Of a stretch of 64,000 nt of DNA, positions 34,547 to 59,954 are shown piece after piece. The stretch is from the NCBI GenBank assembly GCA_964605145.1, contig CAZSBG010000009.1:28727-92726 (forward strand). The letters run 5' to 3'. Source of the stretch: an uncultured Cytophagia bacterium. GTDB taxonomy: Bacteria > Zhuqueibacterota > Zhuqueibacteria > Thermofontimicrobiales > Thermofontimicrobiaceae. How positions within the stretch are numbered: position 1 is the first letter of the stretch; each line of letters begins with the position of its first letter. The notes beneath the pieces are model-generated. The model was given only the letters and a program-made list of their open reading frames with translations. It ran no database searches and was not told the origin of the DNA. Made by a program: the position numbers and the translations under genes.

Positions 34547-34708
34547 CTACCGAACATTTTTAAATTATGTTCGGTAGAGCTGTCATTCCCGTACCACAGG
34601 CATTCCCTTCGGTCACATGCCTGCAAAGTTGCATTATATTTTTAGATGAAAGCAGACTTTGCTTTTAGCGGAATCTCATCGAGATATAGAATGAGATTCC
34701 TGTCCTCC
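34547..34708. repeat. MITE-like palindromic element, copy 1 (TGTCATTCCCG... family)
   Basis: A hairpin CTACCGAACAT...ATGTTCGGTAG is followed by TGTCATTCCCGTACCACAGGCATTCCCTTCGGTCACATGCCTGC. An internal GGAATCTC...GAGATTCC hairpin follows. Near-identical sequence recurs in reverse orientation at 38744-38885 and 45470-45548. Confidence 0.6.
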
Positions 34709-34827
34709 AAAAAGATGGCGGATCTACGACAAAAAACGCGCGCGCGACCGAATGAAGTCCAGCGGAAATGACGGACAAAGGGTATTCTGACTATATAGCA
34801 CTTTTCAGTACTGACAATTCACAATTC

Positions 34828-36198
34828 TCAATTGATTTTGTTTCGATAAACCGGATGCGCCTCGGTGTTGAAAATCACACCATCGAAATCCAGTGTTTCT
34901 TCCGGCGCGAACAACAGGTGCAAATATTTCAGTGTTTCAGCCAGGAAAAAACTTTCCATGCTGTCGTCTTTTTCTTTGGTGATAACGCTCTTCAGCGCGG
35001 CAAATCCGGAGTCTGTACGGCAGAATTTGATGATGCTGTTCAGGTACGTTTCACCCATGTGCAAATATTTTTCATCCTTTGTGAAATGGTACAAATAATA
35101 AGCGGACTCTATGTTTTCAGGGCGAAGCACGTAATAGGGAGCCGTGACCTGCATGGCGCTGTAATCGATCTGCTCCGGCTCGATGTCGTGAAGCGCCCAC
35201 ATTTTGTAGCACGATTCCTGGAGCCGGGCCGCTCGCTCCACATCGCCACCCAGGGCTAACACGGCAGGGAAAAACGCATCCAGCGCGCCGAACCGGGCCG
35301 CAACTCGCTCCCCGCTGTCCATATCGACGTGACCGTACCACAGCCCGGTTTCCGTTTCATCGGCCAGGTATGTGTTGATGGCAGCGACGCTCGTTTCCCA
35401 CATATTTTTGAATTCGTCATCTTCAAACAAAATCGCTGCTTTGAGCAGGTACTCGTAAAACGAATCGATCATGCCGCTCAAATGGCAGGTTTTGTTGATC
35501 CATTGCCCGGTCTCGACATTGATTGTTGTGCCCACCAAATCTATTTCGGAGCGGCGCGAAAACAATTCCACGATGGCGCGCTTTGCTTTGTCGAAATAAA
35601 CCGGATTGCCGGTCATCCGGGACAGCGTCCCGAATTCGATGATGAGCGTGCCAATCTCAGCCGGATTGTTGATGGAGCCGCCGCTGACGCCGGTTTTCAA
35701 ATTGACGTTCACGTATGGCATGCCGGTGGGTGAATCGAAAACAGGGAGGAGGCGATTGCCCAGATCGGTCGCCAGATCGAGGAAACGCTGGTCGCCATCC
35801 AGTTGATATGCGGAGAGGAGTCCACCCAGCAGTCGAATGGTGATCTCAAAATTCTGAACTGAAATGTCCAGGTCGAAGGTCAGGTTATTGAGGATCAGGT
35901 CTTTGGCTTCCCGGGCCTGTTCATCCAGCCCCATCAAAATCATGGTGTCGAACGCATCCACCGGGGTCATGTACAGCGAAACGCCGTACCAGTCGCGGTA
36001 GGATTTGCTCAACGGTTTCAGGGCGTCGTGGCCCCAGGCGTATTGTTTGTAGCTGTTCCACGCATGGAGAAATTCAGCGCGGACCTGCTCGGCCAATTCC
36101 GGCTTTCTTTGGGAAATGGTTTTTGTATCTTTTTTTGAATTGCAACCGAACGTGAAAATTAACACAGGTAAAAGCAAAACAAACTTTATAATTTTCAT
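34828..36198 (-). CDS. Glycoside hydrolase family 47 alpha-1,2-mannosidase-like lipoprotein
   Basis: It has the GH47 motifs AWNSYKQYAWGHDALKPLS and RLLGGLLSAYQLDGDQRFLDLATDLGNRLLPVFDSPTGMPYVNVNL. The likely start is MKIIKFVLLL...FGC at ~36198, carrying a lipobox; the tracked ORF extends further 5'. Confidence 0.8.
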   Translation of the reverse strand: MKIIKFVLLLPVLIFTFGCNSKKDTKTISQRKPELAEQVRAEFLHAWNSYKQYAWGHDALKPLSKSYRDWYGVSLYMTPVDAFDTMILMGLDEQAREAKDLILNNLTFDLDISVQNFEITIRLLGGLLSAYQLDGDQRFLDLATDLGNRLLPVFDSPTGMPYVNVNLKTGVSGGSINNPAEIGTLIIEFGTLSRMTGNPVYFDKAKRAIVELFSRRSEIDLVGTTINVETGQWINKTCHLSGMIDSFYEYLLKAAILFEDDEFKNMWETSVAAINTYLADETETGLWYGHVDMDSGERVAARFGALDAFFPAVLALGGDVERAARLQESCYKMWALHDIEPEQIDYSAMQVTAPYYVLRPENIESAYYLYHFTKDEKYLHMGETYLNSIIKFCRTDSGFAALKSVITKEKDDSMESFFLAETLKYLHLLFAPEETLDFDGVIFNTEAHPVYRNKIN

Positions 36199-36461
36199 TT
36201 CAAAGCTCCAACAAAAATTCTCTTTTGAAAATATTGAATTACCACAGGTCACATAGTCCACAAATAAAAAATCAAAAGCAAATTTCATTTTGATCAACCT
36301 GGATCGTTCTGGAGTTTTCTCCAGAACGCAATTTAAATTCAGACATTTGTCTGATCTGTAAAATGGACCGACTCATCTGATCGCTGACTGCAAAATTTAT
36401 TAAAGCCTTTTCTTTGTGCCCTCTGCGCGCTTTTTGGTTCCATAGTTTTTTACAAAAAATT

Positions 36462-37619
36462 TTATTCAACCGAATCCTTCCCACTGGTCAGCCAATTCAG
36501 CGAAAATTTTTCGAATACGATTGTTTCGTACGGATGCTCGCTTCCGGCTTCGTACAAACAAGCAATGTCCAGGTTCGGGAGCACCGCCAGGCCGGAATAG
36601 GCCGAAGGCCCTTCGTGCAAAGTGCGGGCAACCGGCCAGGTCTTGCCTTCGTCGTAGCTGAGGCGAACCGTCATTTTTACGCGGCTCTCCTCGCTTGCAG
36701 GATTGGAAAATAGCAATCGGTTTTTCCCATCCTCTGATTCCAGCGTGTAGCGAATGAAACTTGCCTGGCAAATCGGCTCGATGAGTGTGGAATCGTAATA
36801 CACCTCGGACCAGCTTTCGCCGCCGTCTTCGCTGGTGGATATGGCGCGGTATTGGAATTCCCGGCGATTATAATTGCGCATGTTCAGCATCAGTCTGCCA
36901 TCGGCCAATTCCACAGCCTGACATTCGTTGACCTGGTCGACCGGCGTGCTGCCGCCCAAATGCCAGGTTTGTCCCGCATCATCGGAATAAATGATGTGCG
37001 AAAAATATTTCTCTGTTTCCGCTTCGATGTGATCGCACGGAATGACCAGTCTGCCGGCGCGCTCGCCTCGCTGCAATTGAATGCCGGTGCAGGGCCCGGT
37101 GGCGTACCACGTCCAGTTTTCCTGCTTGACGTCTTGGGTAATTTCGGTTGGCGTTGTCCAGGTCAATCCATCATCGCTTGAGGATGAAATGAAAATTCGC
37201 CGCGTATCCTCACTTTCCTGCTTAATGATTTGCGGCTCGTGGTCAGTGCCGAGATTCCGGGTCATCAGCAGAAAAATTGTCCCTGATTTTTGATCAACCA
37301 CAGGACAGGGATTGCCGCACACATTAACGCCATCGTCCCAGATCACCTGCTGGTCGCTCCAGGTTGCTCCATTGTCCGCGGATCGCTTCACCAGCATGTC
37401 GATGTTGCCTGTGTCGCCCTGGCTTCCTTTTCTGCCTTCACAAAAAGCCAATAACGTCCCCGCTTTCGTCACAAGCAGCACCGGGATTCGGTATGTGTGA
37501 TATCCGTCCTGTCCGCTCACGAATAAATTGACTCTTGTTGTTTGTTGTGGTTTTCCGCAGAATAGAAAGATGGAAATAAGGGAGAGAAGGAAAATCAATT
37601 TAATGAAGTATTTTTGCAT
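36462..37619 (-). CDS. GH33 exo-alpha-sialidase (BNR/Asp-box repeats)
   Basis: It has the YRIP motif and four Asp-boxes: [23 protein letters not shown] and SEDGGESW. The likely start is MQKYFIKL...FCG at ~37619, a lipoprotein signal. Confidence 0.8.
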
Positions 37620-37705
37620 GTTTTGGTTATTCCTTTGTGGTTTGATGGAATAGTGTTGTAAAAAAGAATCACGCAAAGACGCAAAGAAAAACTAAAATTT
37701 TCTTA

Positions 37706-38575
37706 TCATAGTTCAGATTTTATTAAATCTCTGAGATACGCCCGGAGCGGCTCGGCAAATTCTTCGCGCTTCAAGCCGAATTCGATTTGCGTTTTGAGAT
37801 AATCAAATTTATTCCCAATATCGTACCGCTTGCCGTGAATGGTGTGCGAGTAGATCGATTCTTTTTTCAGCAGCATTCGCATGGCGTCGGTCAATTGAAT
37901 TTCATTATTTTTGTCGATGGGCGTTTGTTCGAGAATGTCAAAAATTCCCGGGGTGAGAATGTAACGCCCGGCAATGGCCAGGTTGGAGGGGCTCTGCTCG
38001 GCCGAAGGCTTTTCGACAAGTTGTGAAAGCTTCAAAATCCCGGGACTTACTTCATCACCCCCAACAATGCCGTAACTTGACACTTTTTCGCGGGGTACTG
38101 TTTCCACGGCCAGAACGCTGCTTTTGAATTGTTGAAAAATATCCATCAATTGCCGCGTTACAGGCATTGGCGAATCGAGAATGGTATCGCCCAATAACAC
38201 GGCGAACGGTTCGTCGCCCACGTGACTCCTGGCGTACCGAATGGCGTCGCCCAAACCGTTCTGCTCTTTCTGCCGAATGAAATGAATATCAGCCATGTCC
38301 GCTAATCGAATCATTTCATCGTAGGCAGGATCGTTTTTTTCGCGGAGTCGCTGTTCCAGCTCAAAATTGCGATCGAAATGATCGCCAATGGCGCGTTTGC
38401 CCTTGCCTGTGATGATGAGAATGTCTTCAATGCCTGAATCGACCACCTCTTGCACGACCAATTGAATGGTTGGCGTATCGATAATGGGCAACATTTCTTT
38501 GGGCTGGGCTTTTGTCGCCGGAAGAAAACGGGTGCCAAATCCTGCTGCCGGAATCACTGCTTTCTTTATTTGCAA
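37706..38575 (-). CDS. galU: UTP--glucose-1-phosphate uridylyltransferase
   Basis: The sequence KAVIPAAGFGTRFLPATKAQPKEMLPI is the canonical GalU N-terminus. Confidence 0.85.
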   Translation of the reverse strand: MQIKKAVIPAAGFGTRFLPATKAQPKEMLPIIDTPTIQLVVQEVVDSGIEDILIITGKGKRAIGDHFDRNFELEQRLREKNDPAYDEMIRLADMADIHFIRQKEQNGLGDAIRYARSHVGDEPFAVLLGDTILDSPMPVTRQLMDIFQQFKSSVLAVETVPREKVSSYGIVGGDEVSPGILKLSQLVEKPSAEQSPSNLAIAGRYILTPGIFDILEQTPIDKNNEIQLTDAMRMLLKKESIYSHTIHGKRYDIGNKFDYLKTQIEFGLKREEFAEPLRAYLRDLIKSEL

Positions 38576-38743
38576 AGAATTTCTCCTTAAAAAATTGATT
38601 TTTTTAAATCCTCAAACTATTATTTAGAATTGCGATCAGCTCTCAGCATTCAGCTATCAGCTTCCTGAGTAAAAAAGGAATCATCATTTGACCATTCTTC
38701 TTTCAATGAACCTAATACTACTTGGCCAGATTATCCATTTGTT

Positions 38744-38885
38744 GTCATTCCTGCGTGCTTTTTGCAGGAATCTCAATCAATATCGTGAGGAGATTCCCTA
38801 AAAGCAAAGTCTGCATTCATTTAAAAATATAATGAAACTTGGCAGGCATGTGACCGAAGGGAATGCCTGTGGTACGGGAATGACA
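38744..38885. repeat. MITE-like palindromic element, copy 2
   Basis: It runs from TGTCATTCCTGCG to CGGGAATGACA. Nested hairpins are present (CCTGC...GCAGG and GGAATCTC...GAGATTCC). The right half is the reverse complement of copy 1. Confidence 0.6.
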
Positions 38886-39005
38886 TTGATATGGAAGAAT
38901 TACTCAGTATTTCGAGACAATTGTTAATTAGACAAAATCGTACTAAGTTACGTTTTGTAACTCAATTCTTTTCCTTCGTGCTCTTTGTGGTTGAATAAGT
39001 TTTAT

Positions 39006-40001
39006 CTAAACCAGCTTAGGAATAATCACTTCCGCATCAATTTTTTTCATCGCTAATCTTAATTCTTCCAAGATGGCTTCCGATTTGTACGTGCCAATAA
39101 TCGAACCGCCGGAGCCGGCGAATTTGGCCGAAACGCCGCACGCCCGGGCCGTCCCCACCAGTTCCTTGTTCCGACCGCTGATGTTCATGATTTTACTGCG
39201 GAGATCAAAATTTTCATTGATCAATTGGTGCAGCGATTGGGAGTCGCCGCGTTGCAATGCTTCTTTGCCCTGTTCCGTGATGGCTGCAATTCGATTCAGC
39301 GTTTTGATGACATGCCTGTCCCCGCGGTCGTATTTCACGCGAATGTCGTTCAAAACACGGCCGGAGACTTTGCTCAGCTTCGTGCTGTACGCAATGTACA
39401 CCGGCGGCAATAACCCGATGGACAATGGCTCATAAATGCCGTAACCGTTTTTGTCCAAAAATTCTTTATCGAAATCCATGAAAACGCAGCCTTCGTAAGT
39501 TTGAATCACCCGATCCTGCAACCCGGCGTTGATGCCTAATTCTTTCAGCTCTGCGTTGAGAATGAGCGTCGGCAAAATGTGGCGGGGAATGGCTACATCG
39601 TAAAATTGCAAGAGCGCCCGCATACACGCAGTGACGATGGCGCTGGACCCTGCCAATCCGATTTGCCGGGGAATGGTGGACGCGTATTCGATGGTGAAAT
39701 TTTTTCGCTCCAATTTAATTCCATTTGAATTGCAGTATTCGTGAAATTTTTTGATAGCTGCTTTGATGAGCCGCTCGCCCCCGTAATAGCCGTGAAGCGC
39801 GATTTTTTCGGAGAGATCATCTAAACTTTCGAACTCATTTAAGTCCTGTTGTTGCGGAGTGATTTTCAGTATTTTCGATTCAGTAAGTTTAACCCTGGCG
39901 GAAAAATTCTTAACAATGATGGAAGTCGTCTTTCCGTTATATCCGTCCGAAGGATTGCCCAAAAGCCCGGCGCGTGCGTATGCGAAGGTTTCGATGGTCA
40001 T
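39006..40001 (-). CDS. GHMP-family sugar kinase
   Basis: The N-terminal motif ARAGLLGNPSDGY is followed by the GHMP ATP-binding loop GLAGSSAIV. It is adjacent to galU. Confidence 0.6.
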   Translation of the reverse strand: MTIETFAYARAGLLGNPSDGYNGKTTSIIVKNFSARVKLTESKILKITPQQQDLNEFESLDDLSEKIALHGYYGGERLIKAAIKKFHEYCNSNGIKLERKNFTIEYASTIPRQIGLAGSSAIVTACMRALLQFYDVAIPRHILPTLILNAELKELGINAGLQDRVIQTYEGCVFMDFDKEFLDKNGYGIYEPLSIGLLPPVYIAYSTKLSKVSGRVLNDIRVKYDRGDRHVIKTLNRIAAITEQGKEALQRGDSQSLHQLINENFDLRSKIMNISGRNKELVGTARACGVSAKFAGSGGSIIGTYKSEAILEELRLAMKKIDAEVIIPKLV

Positions 40002-40214
40002 GCGCGTGTTCCGTGTTCCTTAGATTCGAGGTGGTTTATAAATTAAATTCTACCATAAAATTGTATTTTGAATTAATTTTGACGTTTTGATGGCAAGCCT
40101 ATAATTAAAAATAAATTTGGTAATAATGCAAACAAAAAATGAAATATTTTAAAATTCTTGTGGTTGCTGCTGAGAAATAATAAAAATAACTTCAAGCCCT
40201 GGAGACTTTGTGGC

Positions 40215-40263
40215 AAAATAAAAAAAGCCATCAACACCGGGATTTAACCCTGTATTGATGGCT
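40215..40263 (-). terminator. Intrinsic terminator downstream of dcp
   Basis: Read on the minus strand, AGCCATCAATAC-loop-GTGTTGATGGCT is followed by TTTTTTTA. Confidence 0.55.
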
Positions 40264-40284
40264 GTAATTTCACACATTAAAAAC

Positions 40285-42381
40285 CTATTTCAAACCTTTT
40301 CGTTTGAGCAGCGGTTCGATGCTCGGCTCAGCGCCGCGGAACCGTTTATACAATACCATGGGATCTTCGGTGCCGCCGGCAGCTAAAATATGGGTGCGGA
40401 ATTTTGTCGCCGTTTCCTTGTCGAACAGGCTGGTTTCTTTGAATGCCTGAAATGCGTCCGCGTCCAGCACTTCGGACCAGATGTAGCTATAATAACCGGC
40501 AGAGTACCCACCAGAAAAAATGTGACGGAAATACGGGCTGCGGTATCTCACCACGATTTCCGGAATCAATCCAATTTTTTTCATGGATTTGTTCTCAAAC
40601 TGAATGGCGTCTTTTTCTTCCGGGGTCTCCAGGGTGTGCCAGTCCATGTCCAGAAAAGAAGCTGCCAGATATTCCACTGTGGCAAATCCCTGGTTGAAAT
40701 GACGCGCCTTTTTGATTTTTTCGATGAGTTCATCCGGAATTGGCTCGTCGGTTTCAAAATGTTTGTAGTACAATTTCATCACCTCCGGTTCCGAAGCCCA
40801 GTTCTCCATAATTTGCGAGGGCAATTCCACAAAATCGCGGGGAACGGCTGTGCCGGACAATCTTTCATAAGAGCAGTTGGACAATAATCCATGCAGCGCA
40901 TGGCCAAATTCGTGGAACATAGTGGACACTTCTTCAAATGTGAGCAGCGATGGTTTATCGCCGGTGGGTTTGGAGAAATTGCCCACATTGCAGATCACCG
41001 GGGTAATCATTTGTCCATCTTTCCGGGATTGTTTCCGGTAGGAGCTCATCCAGGCGCCACCGCGTTTGCTTTCCCGCGGAAAATAATCGACGTACAAAAT
41101 ACCAATGTGAGTGCCATCGGCTTCTTTCACTTCAAATACGTTAACGTCTTCATGGTACACCGGTATGTCATTGCGTTCATCGAGCGTAATTCCGAAAAGC
41201 TTATTGGCCACATCGAAAACACCCTGACGCACATTTTCCAGCTTGAAGTAGGGACGCAGCACTTCATCGTCCAGCTCGTATTTTGCTTTCTTCAGCTTTT
41301 CTGCGTAATACCACCAGTCCCAGGGCTGCAATTTGAAATTTTCCCCTCCATCAAAAATCATGGATTGCAGCTCATACGCTTCCTTTTTTGCCATGGTGAG
41401 GGCAGGCTCCCAAAGTTTATAGAGCAAATCGTAAACATTGGCCGGCGCTTTTGCCATATTTTCTTCAAGCACGAAATGAGCGTGTGTTTTGTAATCCAGC
41501 AATTTTGCCCGTTCCACACGAAGGGCGGCAATTCTTGAAAGAATTTTTTTGTTGTCGTATTTGTTATCATTATCGCCTCGATTGATGTAGGCTTTGAAAA
41601 TCTTTTCCCTGAGATCGCGTTTTTCTGAATATTGCAGGAAGGGGATCATGCTGGGTTTGTGCAGCGTGAACACCCACTTGCCTTCATGGTCGCGCTGTTT
41701 GGCAGCTTCAGCCGCGCCAATAACGGCTGCTTCAGGCAATCCTGCGAGATCAGCTTCATTTTCAATCACAAGCTCAAATGCGTTGTCTTCGGCTAAAACA
41801 TTGTTACCAAAATTCACGGTGAGTGTTGCAAGTTCTTCGTTTATTTTGCGTAGCGCTGCTTTTTTCTCATCATCCAGATTTGCGCCACCTCGCACAAAAT
41901 CCTTGAAATATTTTTCCAGCAGGGTTTCCTGTTCATTGGTGAGTTCCAGTTCATCTTTTTTCTCGAACACAGCTTTCACCCGCTGAAATAAAGTATCATT
42001 CAATAAAATATCATCTCCGTGTTTCGAAAGAAGCGGAGCCATTCTTTGCTGTATGTTCTGGAGAGAGTCGTTCGTGTTCGCTGAAGTCATGTTGAAGAAT
42101 ACATTGGTTGCATTAGTGAGCAACTCTCCGGAATGTTCCATGGCTTCGATGGTATTTTCGAAGGTGGGTTCTTCATGATTATTGGCAATGGATCGTATTT
42201 CTTCGATGTGTTGCTTCATTCCCTGTACAATGGCAGGCTCAAAATGCTCGTCTTTAATTTTGTTGAAAGGTGGCGTTTTGAACGGTGTTTTCCATTCCGT
42301 AAAAAATGGATTGCCGCTGTCCTGTGCACAGAATGAAAATAACAGACTGACAATAACGGTAAGCAATAGTACTTTTTTCAT
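40285..42381 (-). CDS. dcp: M3 family peptidyl-dipeptidase (Dcp/oligopeptidase A-like), secreted
   Basis: A signal peptide is followed by the zinc site HEFGHALH in a 698-aa protein. Confidence 0.85.
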   Translation of the reverse strand: MKKVLLLTVIVSLLFSFCAQDSGNPFFTEWKTPFKTPPFNKIKDEHFEPAIVQGMKQHIEEIRSIANNHEEPTFENTIEAMEHSGELLTNATNVFFNMTSANTNDSLQNIQQRMAPLLSKHGDDILLNDTLFQRVKAVFEKKDELELTNEQETLLEKYFKDFVRGGANLDDEKKAALRKINEELATLTVNFGNNVLAEDNAFELVIENEADLAGLPEAAVIGAAEAAKQRDHEGKWVFTLHKPSMIPFLQYSEKRDLREKIFKAYINRGDNDNKYDNKKILSRIAALRVERAKLLDYKTHAHFVLEENMAKAPANVYDLLYKLWEPALTMAKKEAYELQSMIFDGGENFKLQPWDWWYYAEKLKKAKYELDDEVLRPYFKLENVRQGVFDVANKLFGITLDERNDIPVYHEDVNVFEVKEADGTHIGILYVDYFPRESKRGGAWMSSYRKQSRKDGQMITPVICNVGNFSKPTGDKPSLLTFEEVSTMFHEFGHALHGLLSNCSYERLSGTAVPRDFVELPSQIMENWASEPEVMKLYYKHFETDEPIPDELIEKIKKARHFNQGFATVEYLAASFLDMDWHTLETPEEKDAIQFENKSMKKIGLIPEIVVRYRSPYFRHIFSGGYSAGYYSYIWSEVLDADAFQAFKETSLFDKETATKFRTHILAAGGTEDPMVLYKRFRGAEPSIEPLLKRKGLK

Positions 42382-42572
42382 GCGAATTGTTCCTCTGTTT
42401 AGTTAGTGGATTGGAATTATTTGCCATAAAAATAAGAATTTATTTGAATAAATTCAAGGATTTTTTGGAAGGAAAGGAAAATTTTTATAATCCTGATGAA
42501 GAACCAAGTTGCTCAACAATAATTGAAGATATTTTGATGTAAGATAAAGAAATCATGAATAAGGTGATTCAT

Positions 42573-42614
42573 AAAAAAAAGATCATGTACGAAAAAATGA
42601 TCGTACATGATCTT
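42573..42614 (-). terminator. Intrinsic terminator after small Rho_N-like gene
   Basis: Read on the minus strand, AAGATCATGTACG-loop-CGTACATGATCTT is followed by TTTTTTTT. Confidence 0.6.
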
Positions 42615-42636
42615 CGTGATGTTGTCGAATCGTTTA

Positions 42637-42966
42637 TCAAACTGTCGCGCGCTTCAACGCGTTTTTCAGTTTTTTCATTTGATTCCGAACCGCTTTCAAT
42701 TCTTTATTGTCATGTGCTTCCAGGGCGGCGTCTCGTTTCTTTTTCAATTGCCGTATTTGAGATTTGATTTTTGATTTATTAACACCAACCACTTCATGGT
42801 GGATGTGCATGTCGATATCCAGCGCTTTGCATACTGCTTCCAGCAAGTGCTCCTTGTTCAATTGAGTGTACCCCTGAACTGCTTCGTGTTCGGTTCCCGC
42901 AGCAATTTCACGAAGTTGAGCGACTGTCTTCTTCTTTAATTCTTCATAAGTGTGAGACATTGTCAT
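42637..42966 (-). CDS. Small hypothetical protein with Rho N-terminal-like helix
   Basis: The N-terminus YEELKKKTVAQLREIA resembles Rho_N or SAP-like segments. A basic coiled C-terminus follows. The gene has its own terminator. Confidence 0.4.
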   Translation of the reverse strand: MTMSHTYEELKKKTVAQLREIAAGTEHEAVQGYTQLNKEHLLEAVCKALDIDMHIHHEVVGVNKSKIKSQIRQLKKKRDAALEAHDNKELKAVRNQMKKLKNALKRATV

Positions 42967-43225
42967 CCTCCTCGACTAAGGTTCTCATTTTTTATGATTC
43001 GATACGATTAATTATATTTGTTCAAACGCGAATTATGCCAATTGCGCAAATTACCGGTTGTCTGTTCAAACAATTCGAAACTATTTTATTTCTCGACTAT
43101 TGCATATATCGTTTCACTTTTGACGTTTGCCATTTCACGTCTCACAATTATTTTAATGCATAAAAACCAAAAAGTCAATCACTTTTTTTAGAATACCGCG
43201 ACGTAGTCTCACCCAGTTTTTTTCA

Positions 43226-45322: not shown

Positions 45323-45548
45323 CACTACCGGACACTTTTTCCAAAATTACATTTTAGATCAAATTGTCATGCCCGAATGCCATGTCCAGCTTCCATTAAA
45401 TTTATAAAGGATGACAGACTGGGCTTCTATCGGGCATCCATTTGACAAAATTTTATGAGATTCCCGCCAAAAACATGTGACCGAAGGGAATGCCTGTGGT
45501 ACGGGAATGACAGCTCTACTGAACATAATTTGAAAAGTGTCCGGTAGT
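45323..45548. repeat. MITE-like composite palindromic element, copy 3, bounded by an 17-18 bp perfect inverted repeat
   Basis: CACTACCGGACACTTTT at 45323 is reverse-complementary to GAAAAGTGTCCGGTAGTG at 45532. The interior holds TGTCATGCCCGA...TCGGGCAT and the family core ...CATGTGACCGAAGGGAATGCCTGTGGTACGGGAATGACA. Confidence 0.6.
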
Positions 45549-47191: not shown

Positions 47192-47286
47192 TTTATTCCT
47201 TTATTTGTTTAGTATTCAGTTGCCACGAAGCCTCGAAGTCTCGAAGGCAAAGTATTCCTTTCAAGAAACTTGATTTTTTTTCCAAT

Positions 47287-47316
47287 GTCATTCCCGCATT
47301 CTGTTGGCGGAATCCA
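47287..47316. repeat. Partial MITE-like element (left end only), copy 4
   Basis: TGTCATTCCCGCATTCTGTTGGCGGAATCC matches the left terminus and first hairpin of the 59876 copy. No right terminus is present. Confidence 0.35.
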
Positions 47317-47862
47317 TTGATTGTGCAAGACTTGAAATGCAAATAGAATCGTTTCTAATTAGTAAGTTTTTGGTTTTTCGTTTTCAAATAGATTTGCGCC
47401 TTCACCGAATCTTGGACACTGTTTTGGAAATGAAAAATATACTACTGATTTTTTAATCCTTTGTAGCTCATAATTCATTTTATTGGGATCTGTTCGAAAT
47501 TGTGTGGGTAATTTTAAATCAGTCAAAAACTAACCAGGGCGCGGAGAATGAACAGAGTTCGCAGAGTTTTTTTAATTTAAAAGCTTTGTGACAACAACTT
47601 ATTAGTCGAAAAGACAACGTTTTTTCAGAATTATAAAGATTCAACAATAACTTCTTTTTAAATAAGTGAAGACACTGTTTATAAAAATATGAAATTGAAC
47701 TTACCCATGTTAATTCGTTTTTTTTCTTAGCGATCGTTGCTTTCCATTGCGTCCTTGCGGTTAATATTTTTGACCCACCCGAATATGATTAGAACCTTTA
47801 TTTTAAATCTGCGTGTATCAGTGAATATCTGTGTCTCAACCCAAAAAGGAGTAAAAATTAAT

Positions 47863-48093
47863 TTAGCTCTGCTTCGTCCCTGTATAAACAAACGCGTGTC
47901 GGTTCATTTTGATGTACCCACCCATAACCGTTCCGATAATTTTGCCGCACGGGCATAGCACATTCGTCCCGTCAAATTCGGCGTCATAAATTTTGGTGAT
48001 CCGCGAGCGGTAGCATCGCAGCACCTCGCCGCTGCCGATTTTTTCGTACTTCCAAAGTTTTCGCTTGCAGCCGGCGCATTTTATGGTTAACAT
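47863..48093 (-). CDS. Small zinc-ribbon protein (hypothetical)
   Basis: The 76-aa ORF has CAGC...C and CPCG Cys pairs. It lies directly downstream of the large secreted protein gene on the same strand. Confidence 0.4.
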   Translation of the reverse strand: MLTIKCAGCKRKLWKYEKIGSGEVLRCYRSRITKIYDAEFDGTNVLCPCGKIIGTVMGGYIKMNRHAFVYTGTKQS

Positions 48094-48141
48094 GTGATTT
48101 CCATTTTCTTAATTTCTTTAGCTCACAATTCGGGAGCCATT

Positions 48142-50945: not shown

Positions 50946-51317
50946 TCAGTCAATAAATCGAATCGTCATGGGATATCGATACTGCTCTCCATCATTGGCT
51001 TTGATTGCGGCGATAATCGTCACCACGAAACCAAAGATCAAAAAACCGATCAATAATGGAATACCCACAAGCACGATCGATAAAATTGACGCGGCAATCA
51101 CGTAGATCGTCAGGGTTATCTGAAAATTCAGAGCCTCTTTGCCCTGATCGTCAACAAACGGCAATTCATCTTTTTTGATCAGCCAAATGACGAGTGGACT
51201 GATAATATTGCCAAACGGGATAAAAAAAACAGTAAAGGCGCTGATATGACATAGCATGGCCCACATATTTTCATCTCTTCTGACGTTGGTCGTGGAATTT
51301 GAATTCACTGTGCTCAT
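50946..51317 (-). CDS. DUF4870-family small membrane protein
   Basis: The motif WAMLCHISAF...FIPFGNIISPLVIWLIKKD is characteristic of DUF4870. There are two or three TM helices. Confidence 0.6.
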   Translation of the reverse strand: MSTVNSNSTTNVRRDENMWAMLCHISAFTVFFIPFGNIISPLVIWLIKKDELPFVDDQGKEALNFQITLTIYVIAASILSIVLVGIPLLIGFLIFGFVVTIIAAIKANDGEQYRYPMTIRFID

Positions 51318-51433
51318 TTTCTTGCTCCGGTTAATGGAATAACTAATTCGATCTCTTAAGTGTCCTACGAAGGAATTTTGTTGATGTTTCCTTTTTGTTT
51401 CGATTTGAACCGGGAATCAGCGATAACCATCGC

Positions 51434-53674: not shown

Positions 53675-53763
53675 TTAATGGAATTTTAGTTTCATCGTGA
53701 TTAATAATTTCAGGGATTTTGATTTTGTAATGGTTCTTAAATTTCTGCAAAATGCGAAAAAAT

Positions 53764-53855
53764 GTCATTTCGAGCGAAGCGAGAAATCTGCATAATTATT
53801 TGATATGATGAAAAATCCAGATTTCTCACTCCACTTCGTTCTGTTCGAAATGACA
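53764..53855. repeat. MITE-like palindromic element, copy 5 (TGTCATTTCGAG subtype)
   Basis: It runs from TGTCATTTCGAGCGAAGCGAGAAATCTG through a loop and CAGATTTCTC to TTCGAAATGACA. It is flanked by an outer 9-bp inverted repeat, CTGCAAAAT and ATTTTGCAG. Confidence 0.55.
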
Positions 53856-53976
53856 TCCAATTGTTAATTTTGCAGTAAATTAAAATGGTTATGCAATAGA
53901 AATTCTTTTTTTAACTTTGAGTTTAATTCGATATTTTCAGTTTTACATATTGGAATTTTTCAATAAGAACGTTAAA

Positions 53977-54492
53977 TTATTTATCATAAACCAATTTCTG
54001 TATCATGCTTTTCAATACTTGAAATTCTTCTTTGTTAAATCCCACAGACTGGTAAGCGATCTTGCCTGTTTTGTCGATCAAGTAATTTCTGGGAATGTAG
54101 GCTTTGGCGAACAATCCGTACACGTCGCGTTTTGGATCCGGCGCCATTAAAAACGTGAATCCTTTTTCGTTGTTAAATTTCACCAGTTCCTCGCTGCTGT
54201 GCTCGCGTCCCACAGCGATGACCACGAAGTTTTCTCCCTTGAATTTCTCCCAGATTTCTTTTTGCAGATGCGGCATTTCACTCATACACGGCCCGCACCA
54301 GGTGGCGAAGAAGTTAATCAGTACGGTTTTGCCTTTCATTTTCTGGATGTCGAATTCCTCGCCGGTAATCGTCGTCAGCTTGAATGAAGGAACGGCCTGG
54401 CCAACCTCTGTGAGCGTGGATTCTTTTTCGTCCTGGGCAAGAACAATGAGCGGCAGCAGCAAAAGTAGAATTGAGAAAAAAATAGTGCGGTT
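53977..54492 (-). CDS. TlpA-like thiol:disulfide oxidoreductase (thioredoxin fold), secreted
   Basis: The active site is WCGPC. The likely start is MNRTIFFSILLLLLPLIVLA, a signal peptide at ~54492. Confidence 0.8.
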   Translation of the reverse strand, partial: NRTIFFSILLLLLPLIVLAQDEKESTLTEVGQAVPSFKLTTITGEEFDIQKMKGKTVLINFFATWCGPCMSEMPHLQKEIWEKFKGENFVVIAVGREHSSEELVKFNNEKGFTFLMAPDPKRDVYGLFAKAYIPRNYLIDKTGKIAYQSVGFNKEEFQVLKSMIQKLVYDK

Positions 54493-54759
54493 CATGAAAT
54501 CCTCCAGATTTTCTATTTCCAAATTGATTTCCGTTGGATGAAATTTAAACAAATGTCGAATAAAAAACAAGCACGAAATGTGCGGGATAAAAGTCAGAGT
54601 TTTTTAACGATGGATTGTACAAAAAGTTATTATATTTTTGTTACGAATATTGTCTGTTTCAGCAAAATTAATTACATTGGAAAATTGAAATAACAAAGTT
54701 TGATTTAACTAAAATTATACGTTTTTCACCCTGTCAAAATTTAAGGATTTGAGCTGCAT

Positions 54760-55770
54760 TTGACCTACGCTATCGAAACAGTCGGATTGACCAAAGAATA
54801 TCCGCAACATCGGGGCTATTCGGAATTGCTCCTGCATCCGCTTCGAAAGAAATCGTTCACGGCGCTGAAAAATATCTCGTTGCAGCTTCGTCACGGTGAA
54901 CTGTTCTGCCTGTTAGGATCCAACGGCGCCGGAAAAACCACACTCATCAAAATTTTGTGCTCGCTGGTTTTGCCCACATCCGGCAAGGCATTTGTGGACG
55001 GATTCGATGTGGTAAAGCAGGGGGGAGAAGTCCGAAAAAAAATAGGTTACGTGGTCAGCGATGAACGCAGCTTTTACTGGCGCTTGACAGGCCGGCAAAA
55101 TCTTCAGTTTTTTGCCACGCTGCACAAAATGCCATCTTCCATCATTCCCGAAAAAATAAATCGATTGCTGGATATGACTGGTTTGCAGCCGGATGCCGAC
55201 AAGTTATTCAAAGATTATTCGTCGGGCATGAAGCAAAAGCTTGCCATTGCGCGGGGATTGCTCAATGACCCTGAAATGGTGTTCATGGATGAACCAACCC
55301 GCAGCCTCGACCCGTACACATCGCACATTTTGAGGAATTTCATCAAAGAAAAAGTTGTGGGGGAAAACGGAAAAACTGTTTTCCTGGCCACGCACAATCT
55401 GCAGGAAGCGGAAACGCTGAGCGATAAAGTCGCCATCATTCACAAAGGTCAATTTCGCGCGTTTGGAACCATGCAGGAAATTCTTCAAAATGGAAAGACG
55501 CGTCCGGTGTTCGCAGTTTCGCTCGCCCGACCAACGCCGGAAGTCCTGTCCCGCTTGAAAGAATCCTTGTTTTCAATTGAATTTATCAGGGATAATGTTG
55601 AATTGCCGCTGAATGGCACTCCTTTTGAATTTGAGATTTCTGGTTCAGAAAATGAAATTCCGAAAATGATTCGAATGATTGTTGAAGCCGGCGGGGATGT
55701 ATTGAGTTGCGCCCCAAAAAAAATATCGCTCGAGCATGTTTTCGCCAATTTCATTCAGGAGGGAAAATGA
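54760..55770 (+). CDS. ABC transporter ATP-binding protein (ABC-2 exporter type)
   Basis: Walker A is GSNGAGKTT, the signature is YSSGMKQKLAIARGL and Walker B is VFMDEPT. A C-terminal extension follows. The apparent start codon is TTG. Confidence 0.85.
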   Translation: MTYAIETVGLTKEYPQHRGYSELLLHPLRKKSFTALKNISLQLRHGELFCLLGSNGAGKTTLIKILCSLVLPTSGKAFVDGFDVVKQGGEVRKKIGYVVSDERSFYWRLTGRQNLQFFATLHKMPSSIIPEKINRLLDMTGLQPDADKLFKDYSSGMKQKLAIARGLLNDPEMVFMDEPTRSLDPYTSHILRNFIKEKVVGENGKTVFLATHNLQEAETLSDKVAIIHKGQFRAFGTMQEILQNGKTRPVFAVSLARPTPEVLSRLKESLFSIEFIRDNVELPLNGTPFEFEISGSENEIPKMIRMIVEAGGDVLSCAPKKISLEHVFANFIQEGK

Positions 55771-56582
55771 GAGCGAGCCTTGCCATTCCCTGGGCGTTTT
55801 TAAAACGCGACCTCCGCAACGAATCCAGTTACAAACTGCATTTTTTCATGCAAATGGCCGGGATTCTTTTTTCCACGGTGACATTTTATTTCTTGTCAAA
55901 ATTAATCGGCACAAAATTCAATGCGTATTTGAAGCCATACGGCGGCGATTACTTTTCGTTCGTTCTCATTGGAATTGCCTTTTCCCATTATTTGCAGGTG
56001 TCGTTGCAGGGATTCAGCAAGGTCATCCGCGAAGCCCAGGTGATGGGCATCCTCGAGCCGCTGTTGGTCACCCAAACGCGAGTCGAAACCATCATCCTGT
56101 CTTCGACGCTGTACAATTTTCTACTCACGTCGCTCCGCGTGATGGTTTTTCTGCTGCTGGGCGCCCTCGTTTTTTCGATGGACATCAGCAATGGAAATTT
56201 CCCCGGCGCGCTGTTGATTTTGCTGCTGACCATCCCATCGTTCAGTTGTCTCGGCATCATTTCAGCAAGCTTCATTATGGTGATGAAAAAAGGCGATCCG
56301 CTGTCCTGGCTGTTCAGCAGCGTTTCGTGGTTGATCGGGGGCGTTTACTATCCAGTTGCGATTCTTCCGCAATGGATGCAGCATTTGGCGTATCTGCTGC
56401 CCATTCGCCATTCCCTGGAAGGCATGCGCATGGCATTGCTGCAGGGATATTCGCTGAAACAACTGCTGCCCAGCATTATCCCGCTGCTGGTTTTTTCGGC
56501 GATCATGCTGCCGCTCAGCTTGTTAATTTTCCGTTTCGCGGTGAGAAAAGCAAAAATAGATGGGACGCTTACTCAATATTGA
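55767..56582 (+). CDS. ABC-2 type transporter permease
   Basis: The product has six TM helices. Its ATG overlaps the upstream stop codon (ATGA) by four nucleotides, which suggests translational coupling. The alternative-frame ORF 55736-56662 was rejected. Confidence 0.75.
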   Translation: MRASLAIPWAFLKRDLRNESSYKLHFFMQMAGILFSTVTFYFLSKLIGTKFNAYLKPYGGDYFSFVLIGIAFSHYLQVSLQGFSKVIREAQVMGILEPLLVTQTRVETIILSSTLYNFLLTSLRVMVFLLLGALVFSMDISNGNFPGALLILLLTIPSFSCLGIISASFIMVMKKGDPLSWLFSSVSWLIGGVYYPVAILPQWMQHLAYLLPIRHSLEGMRMALLQGYSLKQLLPSIIPLLVFSAIMLPLSLLIFRFAVRKAKIDGTLTQY

Positions 56583-57864
56583 AATCAGTGGCAGGGTTTA
56601 TGGGGCATGGGAAACCGGCTTTGTTCAACATCAATAATGATTTTTTTCTGCAAAGCAAATAAAAATAAAATACGACCGGAATGATGCGGTTAAAGAAAGC
56701 AATCACGGGATGAAGTACACTCAAAAGATAGACTTTTTTCGAATTTTGGGAGAGTCGGTATTTATTCCGTAATTTCTCATGAGAAGGGAACAGGCTGACG
56801 AAAATATGCCTCAATTTATTTCCGAAATTTTCAGCAAGTGAAAGACGGCGTGAGAACGAGAATACCTGCTGGTCAACTTTCTGGGCCATGTATAATCGGT
56901 CGAAATAATCCGGGGAAAACTCGGATTTCAATGCAATAAGTATTTCTGAGGGGATTATGTCTGGTATTACCTCATTTGCGAAAAACAGTCCTGCATAAAC
57001 AAAGTGCGACAATTTGTATTTGTGACAGTTAACCAATAACTGCTCCCAATTCAATCTTTCTTTAAACCGAAAAATTACAGCCGAAATATCGTTAATTTCC
57101 CGATAGGTGATGTTCGTGTTTAATTTATAGAAATGATGCACACACAAATGAAGAAGTGTATCTTCAGGGGAAAGGAAAAGAGCATCGATCTTGTCAATTT
57201 TTCCTTGTTTTACTCGGTCCCATATTTCATCAATTTCAATTTTGATAATTTGATTGTTAGTCCGTAACGTCCAGTGCAGTTCAATGGCCGGTCTCCTTTT
57301 TCGGGACATTGGAGCAGAATGGTGGGAAACTGGTGTGCCGTCTTTTCTCATGGCAGTTTTTGATGAAGATGAATAGTTATGCTCATGTAGAATTCTTCGC
57401 GCCCGATTCATATCATCTTTTTTCACCAACAAGTCAAGGTCGCTGGTCTTACGCACGCCCCAATCCTTGTAAACAGTATCCAGCAGCATTGGCCCTTTAA
57501 GAACGACTGTTTCAATTCCCTCTTTTCGAAATAATTCCAGCACAAATTTTAGTTCATCAAAGATAACCACATTCCAGCCGTATGCAGCAATGTATTTTTC
57601 TTTCAATAACGCGAAATGATCGGATGGAATCAAATCCTGTTTTCCGAAACATTTCAGGTTTGAATAAATCAATGAAGCGACCTGCTGATTTATGGCAAAC
57701 TCGACCAGAAAATCACAGCTTGTCTCGCTGGTTATCAGCGATTCAATTTTCTGAAAAATGGTTTCATCCGGAATGACTGTCGACAGAAGCCTGACCAGTT
57801 TTTTCTCTGTTGCAAATTTATTTCTCACAGTGAGCCTCGAAATGCAAGAAGGTTGGAAAAACAT
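56569..57864 (-). CDS. Uncharacterised nucleotidyltransferase family protein (NTP_transf_5/PF14907-like)
   Basis: The minimal nucleotidyltransferase fold motif is LKGPMLLDTVYKDWGVRKTSDLDLLV. The tracked ORF extends 5' into the upstream peptidase gene, so the start is uncertain. Shown here from the internal Met, MFFQ. Confidence 0.55.
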   Translation of the reverse strand: MFFQPSCISRLTVRNKFATEKKLVRLLSTVIPDETIFQKIESLITSETSCDFLVEFAINQQVASLIYSNLKCFGKQDLIPSDHFALLKEKYIAAYGWNVVIFDELKFVLELFRKEGIETVVLKGPMLLDTVYKDWGVRKTSDLDLLVKKDDMNRARRILHEHNYSSSSKTAMRKDGTPVSHHSAPMSRKRRPAIELHWTLRTNNQIIKIEIDEIWDRVKQGKIDKIDALFLSPEDTLLHLCVHHFYKLNTNITYREINDISAVIFRFKERLNWEQLLVNCHKYKLSHFVYAGLFFANEVIPDIIPSEILIALKSEFSPDYFDRLYMAQKVDQQVFSFSRRLSLAENFGNKLRHIFVSLFPSHEKLRNKYRLSQNSKKVYLLSVLHPVIAFFNRIIPVVFYFYLLCRKKSLLMLNKAGFPCPINPATDFNIE

Positions 57865-58364
57865 CGGTTGGTGTAATGAAACAATCGGCGAAACACACCT
57901 CGGAAAAAGCGGTTTTGCCGGGTGAAAAAATAGTTGCTCAGAATTCGCCATTGCATCTGTAGCAGCTTCCCGTACAAGAAATGAATTATGCGATAGCGCC
58001 GGCGTGTAAGATCAATATCTTGATTTTTGGCTTTTATTTCAACGACTTTTCCAAGCACAAGAGACTCCGGAAAAGGATTGTCGAAACGTCCCACAGAATC
58101 ACCCTTTGTGACGATGTAATTAAACATGCCTCTCTGAAATCGGGTTACAAATCGATGTGTGTAATATTTTGTTTCACAATCGATGAGAATAATGTCCCCC
58201 GGAATCAGTTCGGACGCTTTTGCAGCTTCAACAATAATATTATCCCCGGCGTGAATGACCGGGGACATGCTGTTAGTGATAACCTGAGATTTGATTGTTT
58301 GGCAAATAGCCAACTGCTCACGAAGAATTTCAGTTATCACACTTGCCAATTTTTGATCATTCAT
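57825..58364 (-). CDS. S26/S24-like serine peptidase (signal-peptidase-I/LexA fold)
   Basis: The Ser nucleophile box is NSMSPVIHAGDNIIV, and VTKGDSVGRFDNPFPES resembles box D with a candidate general-base Lys. The C-terminal tail is Arg/Phe-rich. Confidence 0.5.
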   Translation of the reverse strand: MNDQKLASVITEILREQLAICQTIKSQVITNSMSPVIHAGDNIIVEAAKASELIPGDIILIDCETKYYTHRFVTRFQRGMFNYIVTKGDSVGRFDNPFPESLVLGKVVEIKAKNQDIDLTRRRYRIIHFLYGKLLQMQWRILSNYFFTRQNRFFRGVFRRLFHYTNRCFSNLLAFRGSL

Positions 58365-58386
58365 AAAATAATTGCAAGTGATTTAT

Positions 58387-58536
58387 TCTATGTATGAGAT
58401 GGGGTACAAAGTAATGAAACAGATGTACAAGAACCAGCCAATGATTCAATAGTATTTGAATGACTGATGTTTGGTTTTATATATCGTTTCTTAATTGATT
58501 TTCTTTTCTTTTTCTCAGAAAAATTTTTTTCTGTCA
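58387..58536 (-). CDS. Candidate RiPP precursor peptide (49 aa; not in the ORF track because it is under 60 aa)
   Basis: Manual translation gives MTEKNFSEKKKRKSIKKRYIKPNISHSNTIESLAGSCTSVSLLCTPSHT. GGGAGA lies 10 nt upstream of the ATG. The start is 50 nt downstream of the radical SAM gene stop, and the stop is 23 nt upstream of the peptidase gene start. The leader is basic; the tail is rich in Cys, Ser and Thr and ends in Thr. Confidence 0.45.
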
Positions 58537-58590
58537 TGATACCAGATCTCCCTAATTTTATGATTTAGCGCAATGAAACAAACCTTAGAA

Positions 58591-59681
58591 TTAGTATATT
58601 TTTTCAATTGGATAATTGATAATGGTTTTTTTTGTTACCGATTTCCTGATACTCGCATGCCTGCATGATTCTTTTGCCGGCTCATAAAGGCTTCCATGCT
58701 CCATTAAAGCGAGCCCCGGGCAGGGACTACAGTAATCCATGTCGTCACAGGTTGCACAATGCTTTAGCTTTGTTAACGTTAATTCACGAATATGTTTTAA
58801 AACCAATGAATTCGACCAAATTTCACGAAATGGTTGTTGGCGTAAGTTACCTGCTTTTTGTTGTATTCGGACACAAGGATAAACATCTCCAAATGGCGAA
58901 ATTAATGTGACTATTTTGCCAGAACTACATATTGTTTCATTTAGGTCGCGATGAAAAAAATCCAAATTTGAAAAATTTTGCTTATAAAATTTAATAATGT
59001 CTTGTGTCTCTAACCGATATTTCAGCGGTAGTTTATCATTGTTCGCTTTTGGATTAATCACTGGATCCGGAAGAAATTTTGCACCAACAAAATCTGCATA
59101 CTCCTGAATGGCTCTCAATTCATTTATATTTTGTTTCATGACAATCGTTTTTATATGCACATTCATTTTGAATTTTATCAGATGATGTATTGCAGACATT
59201 GTTCGCGCAAAAGAACCGGGGATTTGTGTAATACCATCATGTATGTCTTCGGACATGGCATAGATGCTGATTTCAACAAACAGTGGATAGAACTCTGCAA
59301 TTTTCTTCGCGTAACCTTCTGTGATCAGCGTTCCATTTGTGAATAACCGCAATGCAAATCCTTTAGATTTCGCGTGCGAAATAATGTCAAAATAGTCTTT
59401 CCGTAGCATGGCCTCGCCGCCGGAAATTGCAAGGTACAATGTCCCTGCCTCTGCCAATTGATCCAAAATGTCTTTTACTTCATCTGTTGTCAATTCCTGT
59501 CTGTCCGGTTCGTTCACCGCGTAACAATGAACGCATTTCAAATTGCAGCGGTAAGTCAAATCCAGGTGCGCGTAAAGCGGTATATTTTTAGCTGCGGCTC
59601 TGCGCTCGAGGTCACCATAGGATGTGCTGTGTTTTTTGTTTGTCGGAGCTGATTGCATCAATAAATTTCCCCATTCAATCA
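58591..59681 (-). CDS. Radical SAM/SPASM-domain peptide maturase
   Basis: The CX3CX2C motif is YRCNLKCVHCY. The C-terminal Cys-rich SPASM region reads CVRIQQ...CATCDDMDYCSPCPG. The tracked N-terminal 31-50 aa read through a repeat element, so the start is placed at MIEW or MQSAP (~59657-59714, uncertain). Confidence 0.85.
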
Positions 59682-59709
59682 TTTCTAGTCGTTCGTTTCC
59701 AAAATAGTG

Positions 59710-59797
59710 TGTCATTGCGAGCGAAACGGGGTGAAGCGAAGCAATCCCCTGCCCACAAGCGTGAGATTGCTTCGGCCAAAAATGCCTCGCAATGACA
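59710..59797. repeat. MITE-like palindromic element, copy 6 (TGTCATTGCGAG subtype)
   Basis: It runs from TGTCATTGCGAGCGAA through an internal GAAGCAATC...GATTGCTTC hairpin to GCCTCGCAATGACA. It overlaps the annotated 5' end of the radical SAM ORF. Confidence 0.55.
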
Positions 59798-59875
59798 ATT
59801 ATTTGCAATGTTATTTAGTACTACATAGTCAGATTAAAAAATGTCTCGAAAAACAAAGCAGTATTTCATAATCAT

Positions 59876-59954
59876 TGTCATTCCCGCATGCTTTTAGCGG
59901 GAATCTCCTCGTGTTTTAGAATGAGATTCCTGCAAAAAACGTGCAGGAATGACA
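59876..59954. repeat. MITE-like palindromic element, copy 7 (short TGTCATTCCCGC subtype), inside an 18-bp outer inverted repeat
   Basis: TGTCATTCCCGC is followed by hairpins ATTCCCGC...GCGGGAAT, GGAATCTC...GAGATTCC and CCTGC...GCAGG, then AATGACA. The outer inverted repeat is TACTACATAGTCAGATTA at 59818 and TAATCTGACTAAGTAGTA at 59964. Confidence 0.55.

Follow-up and report, generated by a model that had tools for sequence, protein, structure and literature searches.

In a 64,000-nucleotide stretch of DNA from an uncultured Cytophagia bacterium (assembly GCA_964605145.1, contig CAZSBG010000009.1, positions 28,727 to 92,726; hereafter the window), a family of nested palindromes recurs in the intergenic spaces between 34.5 and 60 kb. 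These elements belong to a known class, the CGTC/TGTC-tagged repetitive extragenic palindromes (REPs), also described as Ssn-related motifs (SRM), and the nested palindromes of the window are head-to-head (HH) dimers of TGTC-tagged hairpins. We consider it probable that they are non-autonomous TGTC-tagged REPs and serve as recognition hairpins for Ssn, a nuclease of the GIY-YIG family that acts on single-stranded DNA (ssDNA); any mechanism for their copying is speculative. The family was assessed by reading the sequence at seven places where an earlier note on this DNA had reported copies, by a whole-window repeat search and by a sensitive self-BLAST, and all seven copies, here called A to G, were found to exist. 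The note had favored elements resembling miniature inverted-repeat transposable elements (MITEs) and had offered structured repeats, similar to REPs or to bacterial interspersed mosaic elements (BIMEs), as an alternative. The alternative is essentially correct.

Direct inspection of the elements reveals 12-13 hairpin units between 34.5 and 60 kb, all of them intergenic as the note had stated, which are arranged as five inverted pairs (B, C, E, F and G) and a truncated pair (A), with D standing alone as a single unit. Every clear unit conforms to the formula (T)GTC + ATTNC...GNAAT + C. TGTC stands directly 5' of the stem in 12/12 clear units, the stems all start with AT, and a C follows the palindrome in every unit, the tails being CTC, CTG, CCC or CCA (the last in D and in the left unit of C). 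In B, C, E, F and G two units lie on opposite strands with their tags outward, and the 3' tails (CTC/GAG) and a short spacer are central. The sequence TGTCATT...AATGACA, which had been reported as the termini, does not represent terminal inverted repeats (TIRs) of the transposase type; it consists of the unpaired (T)GTC tags and the stems of two independent hairpins on opposite strands. Such ends do recur, but they are not common to all copies: A has a single TGTCATT end, its second unit being truncated at GAGATTCCTGTCC, and the left terminus of C is TGTCATGCC.

One pentamer occupies all four places of an element; G, B and A have ATTCC, E has ATTTC and F has ATTGC. Element C is a heterodimer of ATGCC and ATTCC units, and a homologous heterodimer is present in a metagenome locus, L198. 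There are consequently four stem subtypes within 26 kb (ATTCC, ATTTC, ATTGC and ATGCC) and not three, as had been proposed. Watson-Crick-type units (the left unit of B, and G) possess 8-bp stems, whereas in G.A-type units 5 bp are followed by tandem G.A pairs. The loops range from 4 nt, in metagenome units, to >70 nt, and those of the window's own Watson-Crick units are 9 nt long. Some units contain insertions within the hairpin: a 24-nt insert after ATTCCCG and, in B and A, a further hairpin of ~45 nt. A module, CATGTGACCGAAGGGAATGCCTGTGGTACGGGAATGACA, shows no difference between B and C (100% identity), which occupy unrelated loci, and is reverse-complemented in A. A core nearly identical in three copies and present in both orientations had been noted before, but its length is 39 nt rather than 45. 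The similarity of A to the reverse complement of B (38765-38885) amounts to 92% over 122 nt by self-BLAST and to 95% over an ungapped 88 nt in the repeat search.

Element A (34581..34702, plus strand) contains one TGTC-tagged unit of the ATTCC type with nested insertions, 34582-34675, and, besides this unit, the central stem GGAATCTC/GAGATTCC. The limits first given for some copies required revision: a palindrome at 34547-34577 (CTACCGAACAT...ATGTTCGGTAG) flanks A and is separate from it, and the core of C spans 45365-45512. Element B, an HH dimer (38743..38885), is composed of a left unit at 38744-38772 (+), GTC-ATTCCTGC-loop-GCAGGAAT-C, and a right unit at 38792-38884 (-) in which the 24-nt and roughly 45-nt insertions are nested. 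In the heterotypic HH dimer C (45365..45512), the left unit (45366-45438, +) is of the ATGCC type with the tail CCA and the right unit (45459-45511, -) is of the ATTCC type with the 24-nt insertion. The single unit D (47286..47317, +) reads TGTC-ATTCCCGC...GGCGGAAT-CCA. Element E (53763..53855) is an HH dimer of the ATTTC type with tandem G.A pairs; its left unit, 53764-53788 (+), is GTC-ATTTC-GA-GCGAAGC-GA-GAAAT-C and its right unit lies at 53820-53854 (-). The remaining HH dimers are F (59710..59797), of the ATTGC type with G.A pairs and with units at 59711-59746 (+) and 59765-59796 (-), and G (59876..59954), of the ATTCC type with units at 59877-59905 (+) and 59925-59953 (-). A possible extra single unit, intergenic and recognized by a pattern match only, is GTC-ATTCAA-ATACTA-TTGAAT-C at 58443..58464 (-).

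The abundance of these units exceeds expectation. TGTCATT is present 28 times in the window, compared with 15.1 expected. For a stricter count, a unit was defined as GTC, a 5-mer starting with AT, the reverse complement of this 5-mer within 90 nt, and then C, with expectations taken from Markov simulations. Twenty such units were observed and 4.45 +/- 2.2 were expected; 14 of the 20 fall in the intergenic 15.5% of the window, and the six coding ones are near the chance level. The elements were also folded as ssDNA, each against 200 shuffles. Five of the seven outfold all of their shuffles, with z-scores from -3.9 to -7.1 (G, at -21.9 kcal/mol, z -7.1; B, -5.4; E, -4.5; A, -4.0; F, -3.9). The result for C is marginal (z -1.9, with 9/200 shuffles folding as well), and the fold of the single unit D is not significant in this comparison.

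The assignment to a known class is based on the following comparison. Di Nocera, De Gregorio and Rocco (2013; BMC Genomics 14:522) catalogued CGTC-tagged REPs as families CGTC-1 to CGTC-4, the first of which is the dRS3 repeat of Neisseria. In these repeats the tag is often TGTC, the stem of 8-9 bp starts with AT, its first pairs being complementary A-T and T-A, the loop is 4-5 nt long and the tail has 3 nt (consensus CCA). "HH dimers", with tags outside, predominate; homo- and heterodimers both occur and some lie within longer palindromes. The class was found in Bacteroidetes and Chlorobi among others, with "no dedicated transposase". The window units share the unpaired TGTC tag, the A-T and then T-A start of the stem and the 3-nt tail. 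They too are mostly HH dimers, both homo- and heterotypic, have spacers with complementary ends, are placed in some cases inside longer palindromes, and occupy intergenic positions between unidirectional genes with no adjacent transposase. They differ in that the perfect stem is often only 5 bp and is then followed by tandem G.A pairs, in that the loops extend from 4 to >70 nt and contain nested hairpins, and in their tails, which are mostly CTC. Further, four stem classes coexist in 26 kb, in a host from a candidate phylum of the Fibrobacteres-Chlorobi-Bacteroidetes (FCB) group that lies outside the 2013 survey.

The same survey bears on an explanation in which the inverted pairs are REPINs, doublets of REPs copied by a single-copy HUH tyrosine transposase, the REP-associated tyrosine transposase (RAYT), whose gene would lie at another place in the genome. 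REPINs have the same architecture as the window elements, with tagged units in inverted doublets that fold into one long hairpin, and share with them the intergenic position and the lack of a target-site duplication. REPINs with RAYTs (Bertels and Rainey 2011) and the BIMEs of E. coli resemble the window elements also in being non-autonomous and in forming mosaic clusters. They differ in their tag, since RAYT-associated REPs are tagged GTAG and the window units TGTC, and in their partnership with an HUH tyrosine transposase. No gene for a tyrosine transposase was bordered by CGTC units in the survey of Di Nocera et al. (2013), who placed G. forsetii among the species that have CGTC repeats without a transposase. 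Our search of the window and of loci L001-L242 with a YafM seed, a search of limited sensitivity, yielded no RAYT-like open reading frame (ORF). Copying by a RAYT is, on this evidence, quite unlikely. Neither RAYT nor the other enzymes put forward in the earlier note (IS630, IS200/605 and TnpB) found any support; the partner that has been linked experimentally to hairpins of this class, by Chenal et al. (2025; Nat Commun 16:2388; PMC11893778), is the small GIY-YIG ssDNA nuclease Ssn.

As defined in that paper, the Neisseria motif NTS is CGTCATTCCCGCGMAVGCGGGAATCYRG; it encompasses dRS3, and the authors extend it to the SRM. SsnA is a single-domain GIY-YIG protein of 94 aa that binds the hairpin as ssDNA only and cuts a few nucleotides upstream of it. 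For cleavage, the three bases that precede the palindrome are important; for binding, the key base is the C that follows it. The motif is typically present on the flanks of ssn genes. These positions, GTC before and C after the palindrome, are kept in 12/12 clear units of the window. The published SRM pattern, HGTCWYN(0-2)YYVSBRHN(0-5)WNVSBRGN(0-2)RNCYNB, fits 2/13 window units (D and the left unit of G), compared with 0.1 expected, and the left unit of G is identical to the Neisseria NTS outside the loop, over GTCATTCCCGC and GCGGGAATC. As with the NTS, the units cluster in mosaic intergenic regions, and their tags-outward layout is that of the NTS-ssnA-NTS cassettes; units of 24 nt from metagenomes share the NTS loop, G-N-A-N. 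In contrast, most window units (TGC, GGC and G.A types, and those with long loops) fall outside the published pattern, and the window has no ssn gene. Gene-less inverted doublets are not mentioned in the main text of the paper, and a literature search with G.A-type sequences returned no paper. The G.A-type stems, the long nested loops, the four stem classes in 26 kb and the candidate FCB phylum are all outside published descriptions.

Comparison of many copies sheds light on what is conserved. In 55 unique metagenome pairs the halves are exact mirror images in only 6 and heterotypic in 34. Selection therefore acts on the single hairpin and not on the long palindrome. Tandem G.A pairs beside the pentamer stem, read from the tag, are seen in 51/110 units (GTCATTCC-GA-GC-GAA-GC-GA-GGAATC), whereas the complementary TC..TC form is present in 0/110. 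This strict strand asymmetry indicates a strand-specific, single-strand function. In a set of 22 distinct units of 24 nt, compensatory substitutions are seen at each of the 3 variable stem pairs and 96.6% of the cells pair; 0/500 shuffles reach the observed values, and slid controls drop to 17-47%. In the G-N-A-N loop of the 24-nt metagenome units, the G and the A are each present in at least 90% of units.

These data also bear on the notion of a classical MITE, that is, a deletion derivative of an insertion sequence with a DDE transposase (IS630/Tc1, IS5 and the like), mobilized in trans through its TIRs. Sharp TGTCATT...AATGACA boundaries, a length of 66-148 nt, a high copy number and a lack of coding capacity are all what such an element would present. 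However, a flanking direct repeat of at least 3 nt, the signature of target-site duplication, accompanies 0/59 paired elements, the halves are independent and often different, and a single unit, D, exists. As the earlier note had found, no transposase is encoded in the window among the scanned ORFs of at least 100 aa, nor does any gene recur beside 120 metagenome copies. When recurrent neighbors of these 120 copies and of 776 half-sites in 318 loci were clustered, no nuclease or transposase family emerged, and on viral contigs the recurrent neighbors were phage structural genes only. A classical MITE is not supported by these results and we regard it as extremely improbable.

The family is dispersed and is neither a local duplication nor a single large structural RNA. 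A 25-nt piece of the core is present at two loci, on different contigs, of a metagenome-assembled genome of Candidatus Zhuqueibacterota, a lineage of the FCB group; both lack synteny with the window. The pattern TGTCATTCC-N-GGAATCTC-N-GAGATTCC was detected in at least 120 metagenome stretches from very different environments, and a complete pair of 66-127 nt was found at 58 loci among the matches listed. The ATTGC subtype (at least 120 stretches) and the ATTTC subtype are widespread too; a blastn search of plasmids with the canonical dimer gave no match. In the Logan assembly SRR7048225, a 2-kb contig that carries the window's FAD oxidoreductase gene terminates within the outer arm of C, the behavior to be expected of a multi-copy repeat. 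The nearest relative found, L258 (86% amino-acid identity), is without C and D, and its intergenic DNA is too diverged for the precise boundaries of empty sites to be drawn. Phage-like contigs from IMG/VR (L305, L317, L338, L434 and L450) contain 3-7 G.A-type TGTC-tagged hairpins between structural genes, in capsid, portal and terminase-like clusters, and the repeats thus occur outside bacterial chromosomes as well.

Elsewhere, such hairpins are found beside ssn genes. Homologues of Ssn were assigned as GIY-YIG by Pfam PF01541, and in most of the 13 Ssn loci examined hairpins are close to the gene. At four of these (L106, L245, L252 and L254) a tags-outward hairpin is present on both sides, 14-50 nt upstream and 7-36 nt downstream of the gene; at some others there is a hairpin on one side, and overall the distance between hairpin and gene end is 7-74 nt. 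Homologues of the Flavobacteriaceae type, from Christiangramia forsetii, Maribacter hydrothermalis and two metagenome contigs, have in 4/4 cases a TGTC-tagged hairpin on either side of the gene, with the tags outward. In these hairpins G.A pairs adjoin a short stem, as in TGTC-AGGCT-GA-GCGCAGTC-GA-AGCC. Downstream of a Flavobacteriaceae-type ssn, at 1520-1670 of L463, five to six partial halves of hairpins (CTTCAACYGCGCTCGACCTGACAAA) are arrayed in tandem. Among viral-contig loci found with the NTS pattern, a GIY-YIG ORF stands beside the motif in 3/120. The gene-less pairs of the window share the geometry of these hairpin-ssn-hairpin cassettes, minus the gene.

The basic unit of the elements consists of an unpaired (T)GTC tag, a hairpin whose stem starts ATTNC...GNAAT and a 3-nt tail starting with C. 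Two units on opposite strands with tags outward constitute the HH dimer, perceived as a nested palindrome. Extra hairpins nested in loops, and dimers inside longer palindromes, produce a mosaic like that of BIMEs or of the Neisseria elements termed NIMEs. A scheme for Ssn recognition can be proposed on this basis. A small single-domain GIY-YIG nuclease of the Ssn type, its gene located in another part of the genome, would bind the unit when its strand is single-stranded and would cut it a few nucleotides 5' of the tag, so that a dimer would offer one site per strand. Because their geometry is the same as that of the compact hairpin-ssn-hairpin cassettes, the dimers may be gene-less derivatives of such cassettes that spread non-autonomously.

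Several observations weigh against a role of these elements as Ssn sites. There is no Ssn homologue, and no GIY-YIG ORF, within the 64-kb window. An intact adjacent Ssn gene was present at 0 of ~320 loci centered on G.A-type ATTCC/ATTGC/ATTTC hairpins, and a hidden Markov model of Ssn, applied to 40 + 158 loci centered on G.A-type units, detected one homologue only, frameshifted and not adjacent to a unit. The window subtypes apart from the two units noted above lie outside the SRM pattern, and the loops of many units far exceed the 4-5 nt of the described families. Finally, what has been demonstrated for Ssn is the cutting of ssDNA and not the movement of DNA. A protein search with proteobacterial Ssn queries was uninformative for FCB bacteria, the matches listed being sphingomonads. 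With hundreds of units per single gene, a missing adjacent Ssn gene is not strong evidence against the link; at the same time no Ssn gene is tied to this genome or to G.A-type units of the ATTCC, ATTGC or ATTTC subtypes, and the connection with Ssn stays indirect. A bolder proposal, which we advance tentatively and with considerable doubt, is that the gene-less pairs are miniature derivatives of hairpin-ssn-hairpin cassettes, forming a MITE-like family mobilized by a GIY-YIG ssDNA nuclease instead of a transposase, that the first 5 nt of the stem form a code, and that the G.A subtype is the commonest. If this were true, the stem starts ATTCC, ATTTC, ATTGC and ATGCC would be a specificity code, with several nuclease/repeat pairs per genome, and the tandem G.A subtype, which the SRM pattern misses, would be the commonest form in environmental bacteria and in some phages.

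The outer inverted repeats that had been reported around some copies are real. Those of C are perfect (18/18; 45322-45339/45533-45550), those of G match at 19/21 positions (59816-59836/59964-59984), and E is enclosed by a 9-mer at 53745 and 53867. Among the paired elements, an outer inverted repeat of at least 9 nt encloses 11/59, compared with 4/300 mismatched-flank controls. The sequences that flank G are homologous, in inverted orientation, to those that flank B (38712-38742 and 38886-38954), and each of the two hairpin dimers thus forms the center of a larger palindromic carrier, about 180-240 nt long. The enclosure of dimers in longer palindromes is compatible with insertion into structured sites, and so with a reading of the elements as passive targets, attachment sites for IS110/Piv-type recombinases or for filamentous phages; dRS3 of Neisseria is cited as a phage recombinase target in PMC11893778. 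On the other hand, neither recombinases nor prophages adjoin the copies of the window or those of the loci sampled, and a role as target leaves the multiplication of the sites unexplained. We judge this reading very improbable.

Some further details of these flanks and insertions were recorded. The inverted homology of G (59807-59985) and B (38712-38954) covers 30-70 nt on each side and includes arms of 18-21 bp (ATACTACWTAGTCAGATT). A second palindromic repeat (CTACCGRACA...TGTYCGGTAG, or CACTACCGGACACTTTT) lies beside or around A, C and the L198 heterodimer, at 34547-34577 and 45322-45339/45533-45550 of the window and at 1600-1860 of L198. The junction GTAGAGC/TGTCATT is common to A and, in reverse complement, to C, which suggests that the composite unit is larger or that insertion favors a particular site. 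The insertion in the ATTCCCG stem holds GCCTGTGGTA adjoining CGGGAAT (34592-34601, 38865-38874 and 45492-45501). Sphingomonad units near ssn (L247-L249, about 1811-1908) have GCCTGTG...GTA by CGGGCAT, on the opposite arm with respect to the tag, a resemblance due either to a common inserted module or to chance.

Every copy is situated between co-directional genes, downstream of an ORF. This location, together with the strong predicted hairpins, would be expected if the elements functioned at the RNA level, as transcribed hairpins of 3' untranslated or intercistronic regions that stabilize mRNA or attenuate read-through, their dispersal being secondary. Di Nocera et al. (2013) favor RNA roles for many REPs. 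Against this, at gathering and E-value thresholds no Rfam family was matched, the only hits being sub-threshold ones to miRNA hairpin models, none of the elements has a T tract or, accordingly, resembles a terminator, and SsnA did not bind an RNA version of the NTS (PMC11893778). Function as RNA hairpins seems to us unlikely as the principal explanation. A further point against it is that the predominant core of the G.A-type units, GCGAAGC with tandem G.A pairs, is a classic and very stable mini-hairpin of DNA. An RNA-level role is compatible with recognition by Ssn, the two not being exclusive. As to terminators, a separate candidate reading that was rejected, no element precedes a T tract, and two genuine-looking terminators in the window look quite different.

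The result links the "orphan" CGTC/TGTC-tagged REPs of 2013 with the Ssn nuclease motifs of 2025, two papers without a common cited concept. The range of the class now includes a candidate FCB phylum and, as tags-outward pairs, many metagenomes, and the published search pattern misses most of this diversity (heterodimers, G.A-type stems and long nested loops). For Ssn biology, this suggests a catalogue of candidate natural ssDNA recognition sites. In practice, such units break short-read assemblies and create spurious small ORFs.

The genes of this region are ordinary and almost all are on the minus strand. Among them are genes for GH47, a nucleotidyl transferase, a GHMP kinase, an FAD oxidoreductase, DPP-IV and AhpC, and a radical-SAM/SPASM-PqqD cluster; the window has no tRNA. 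The motif CCACGAAGCCTCGAAG, which had been associated with the repeats, is real (3 matches at up to 3 mismatches, compared with 0.3 expected, two of them overlapping at one locus). In minus-strand sense, as GAGACTTCGAGGCTTCGTGG, it is located at 47223-47246, 34447-34475 and 26776-26791, 30-85 nt upstream of three minus-strand starts, and it is conserved upstream of the orthologous gene in L258, the relative without the hairpin element. Since it lies upstream of gene starts and is kept where the element is lacking, it is separate from the repeats; it looks like a promoter, operator or 5'-untranslated-region motif. Between the 825-aa TIG-domain gene and the FAD oxidoreductase gene there is a conserved small ORF of 76 aa (47870-48110, minus strand; 2570-2800 in L258) with zinc-ribbon-like CxxC...CxC motifs. 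F and G are placed between the radical SAM and PqqD genes of a cluster (54760-61315) that resembles those for ribosomally synthesized and post-translationally modified peptides and comprises an ABC transporter, NTP_transf_5, an S24-like peptidase, radical SAM/SPASM and PqqD. A tandem array at 29436-29557, between histidine kinase and ion-channel genes, contains ~17 copies of the 7-nt unit ATCGAAT, with periods of 14 and 21 also evident. Finally, an open-ended ORF at 61699-64000 encodes at least 767 aa of a secreted repeat protein, with a strongly positive GC skew and a 238-nt internal direct repeat (62815-63052 and 63757-63994, 73% identical).

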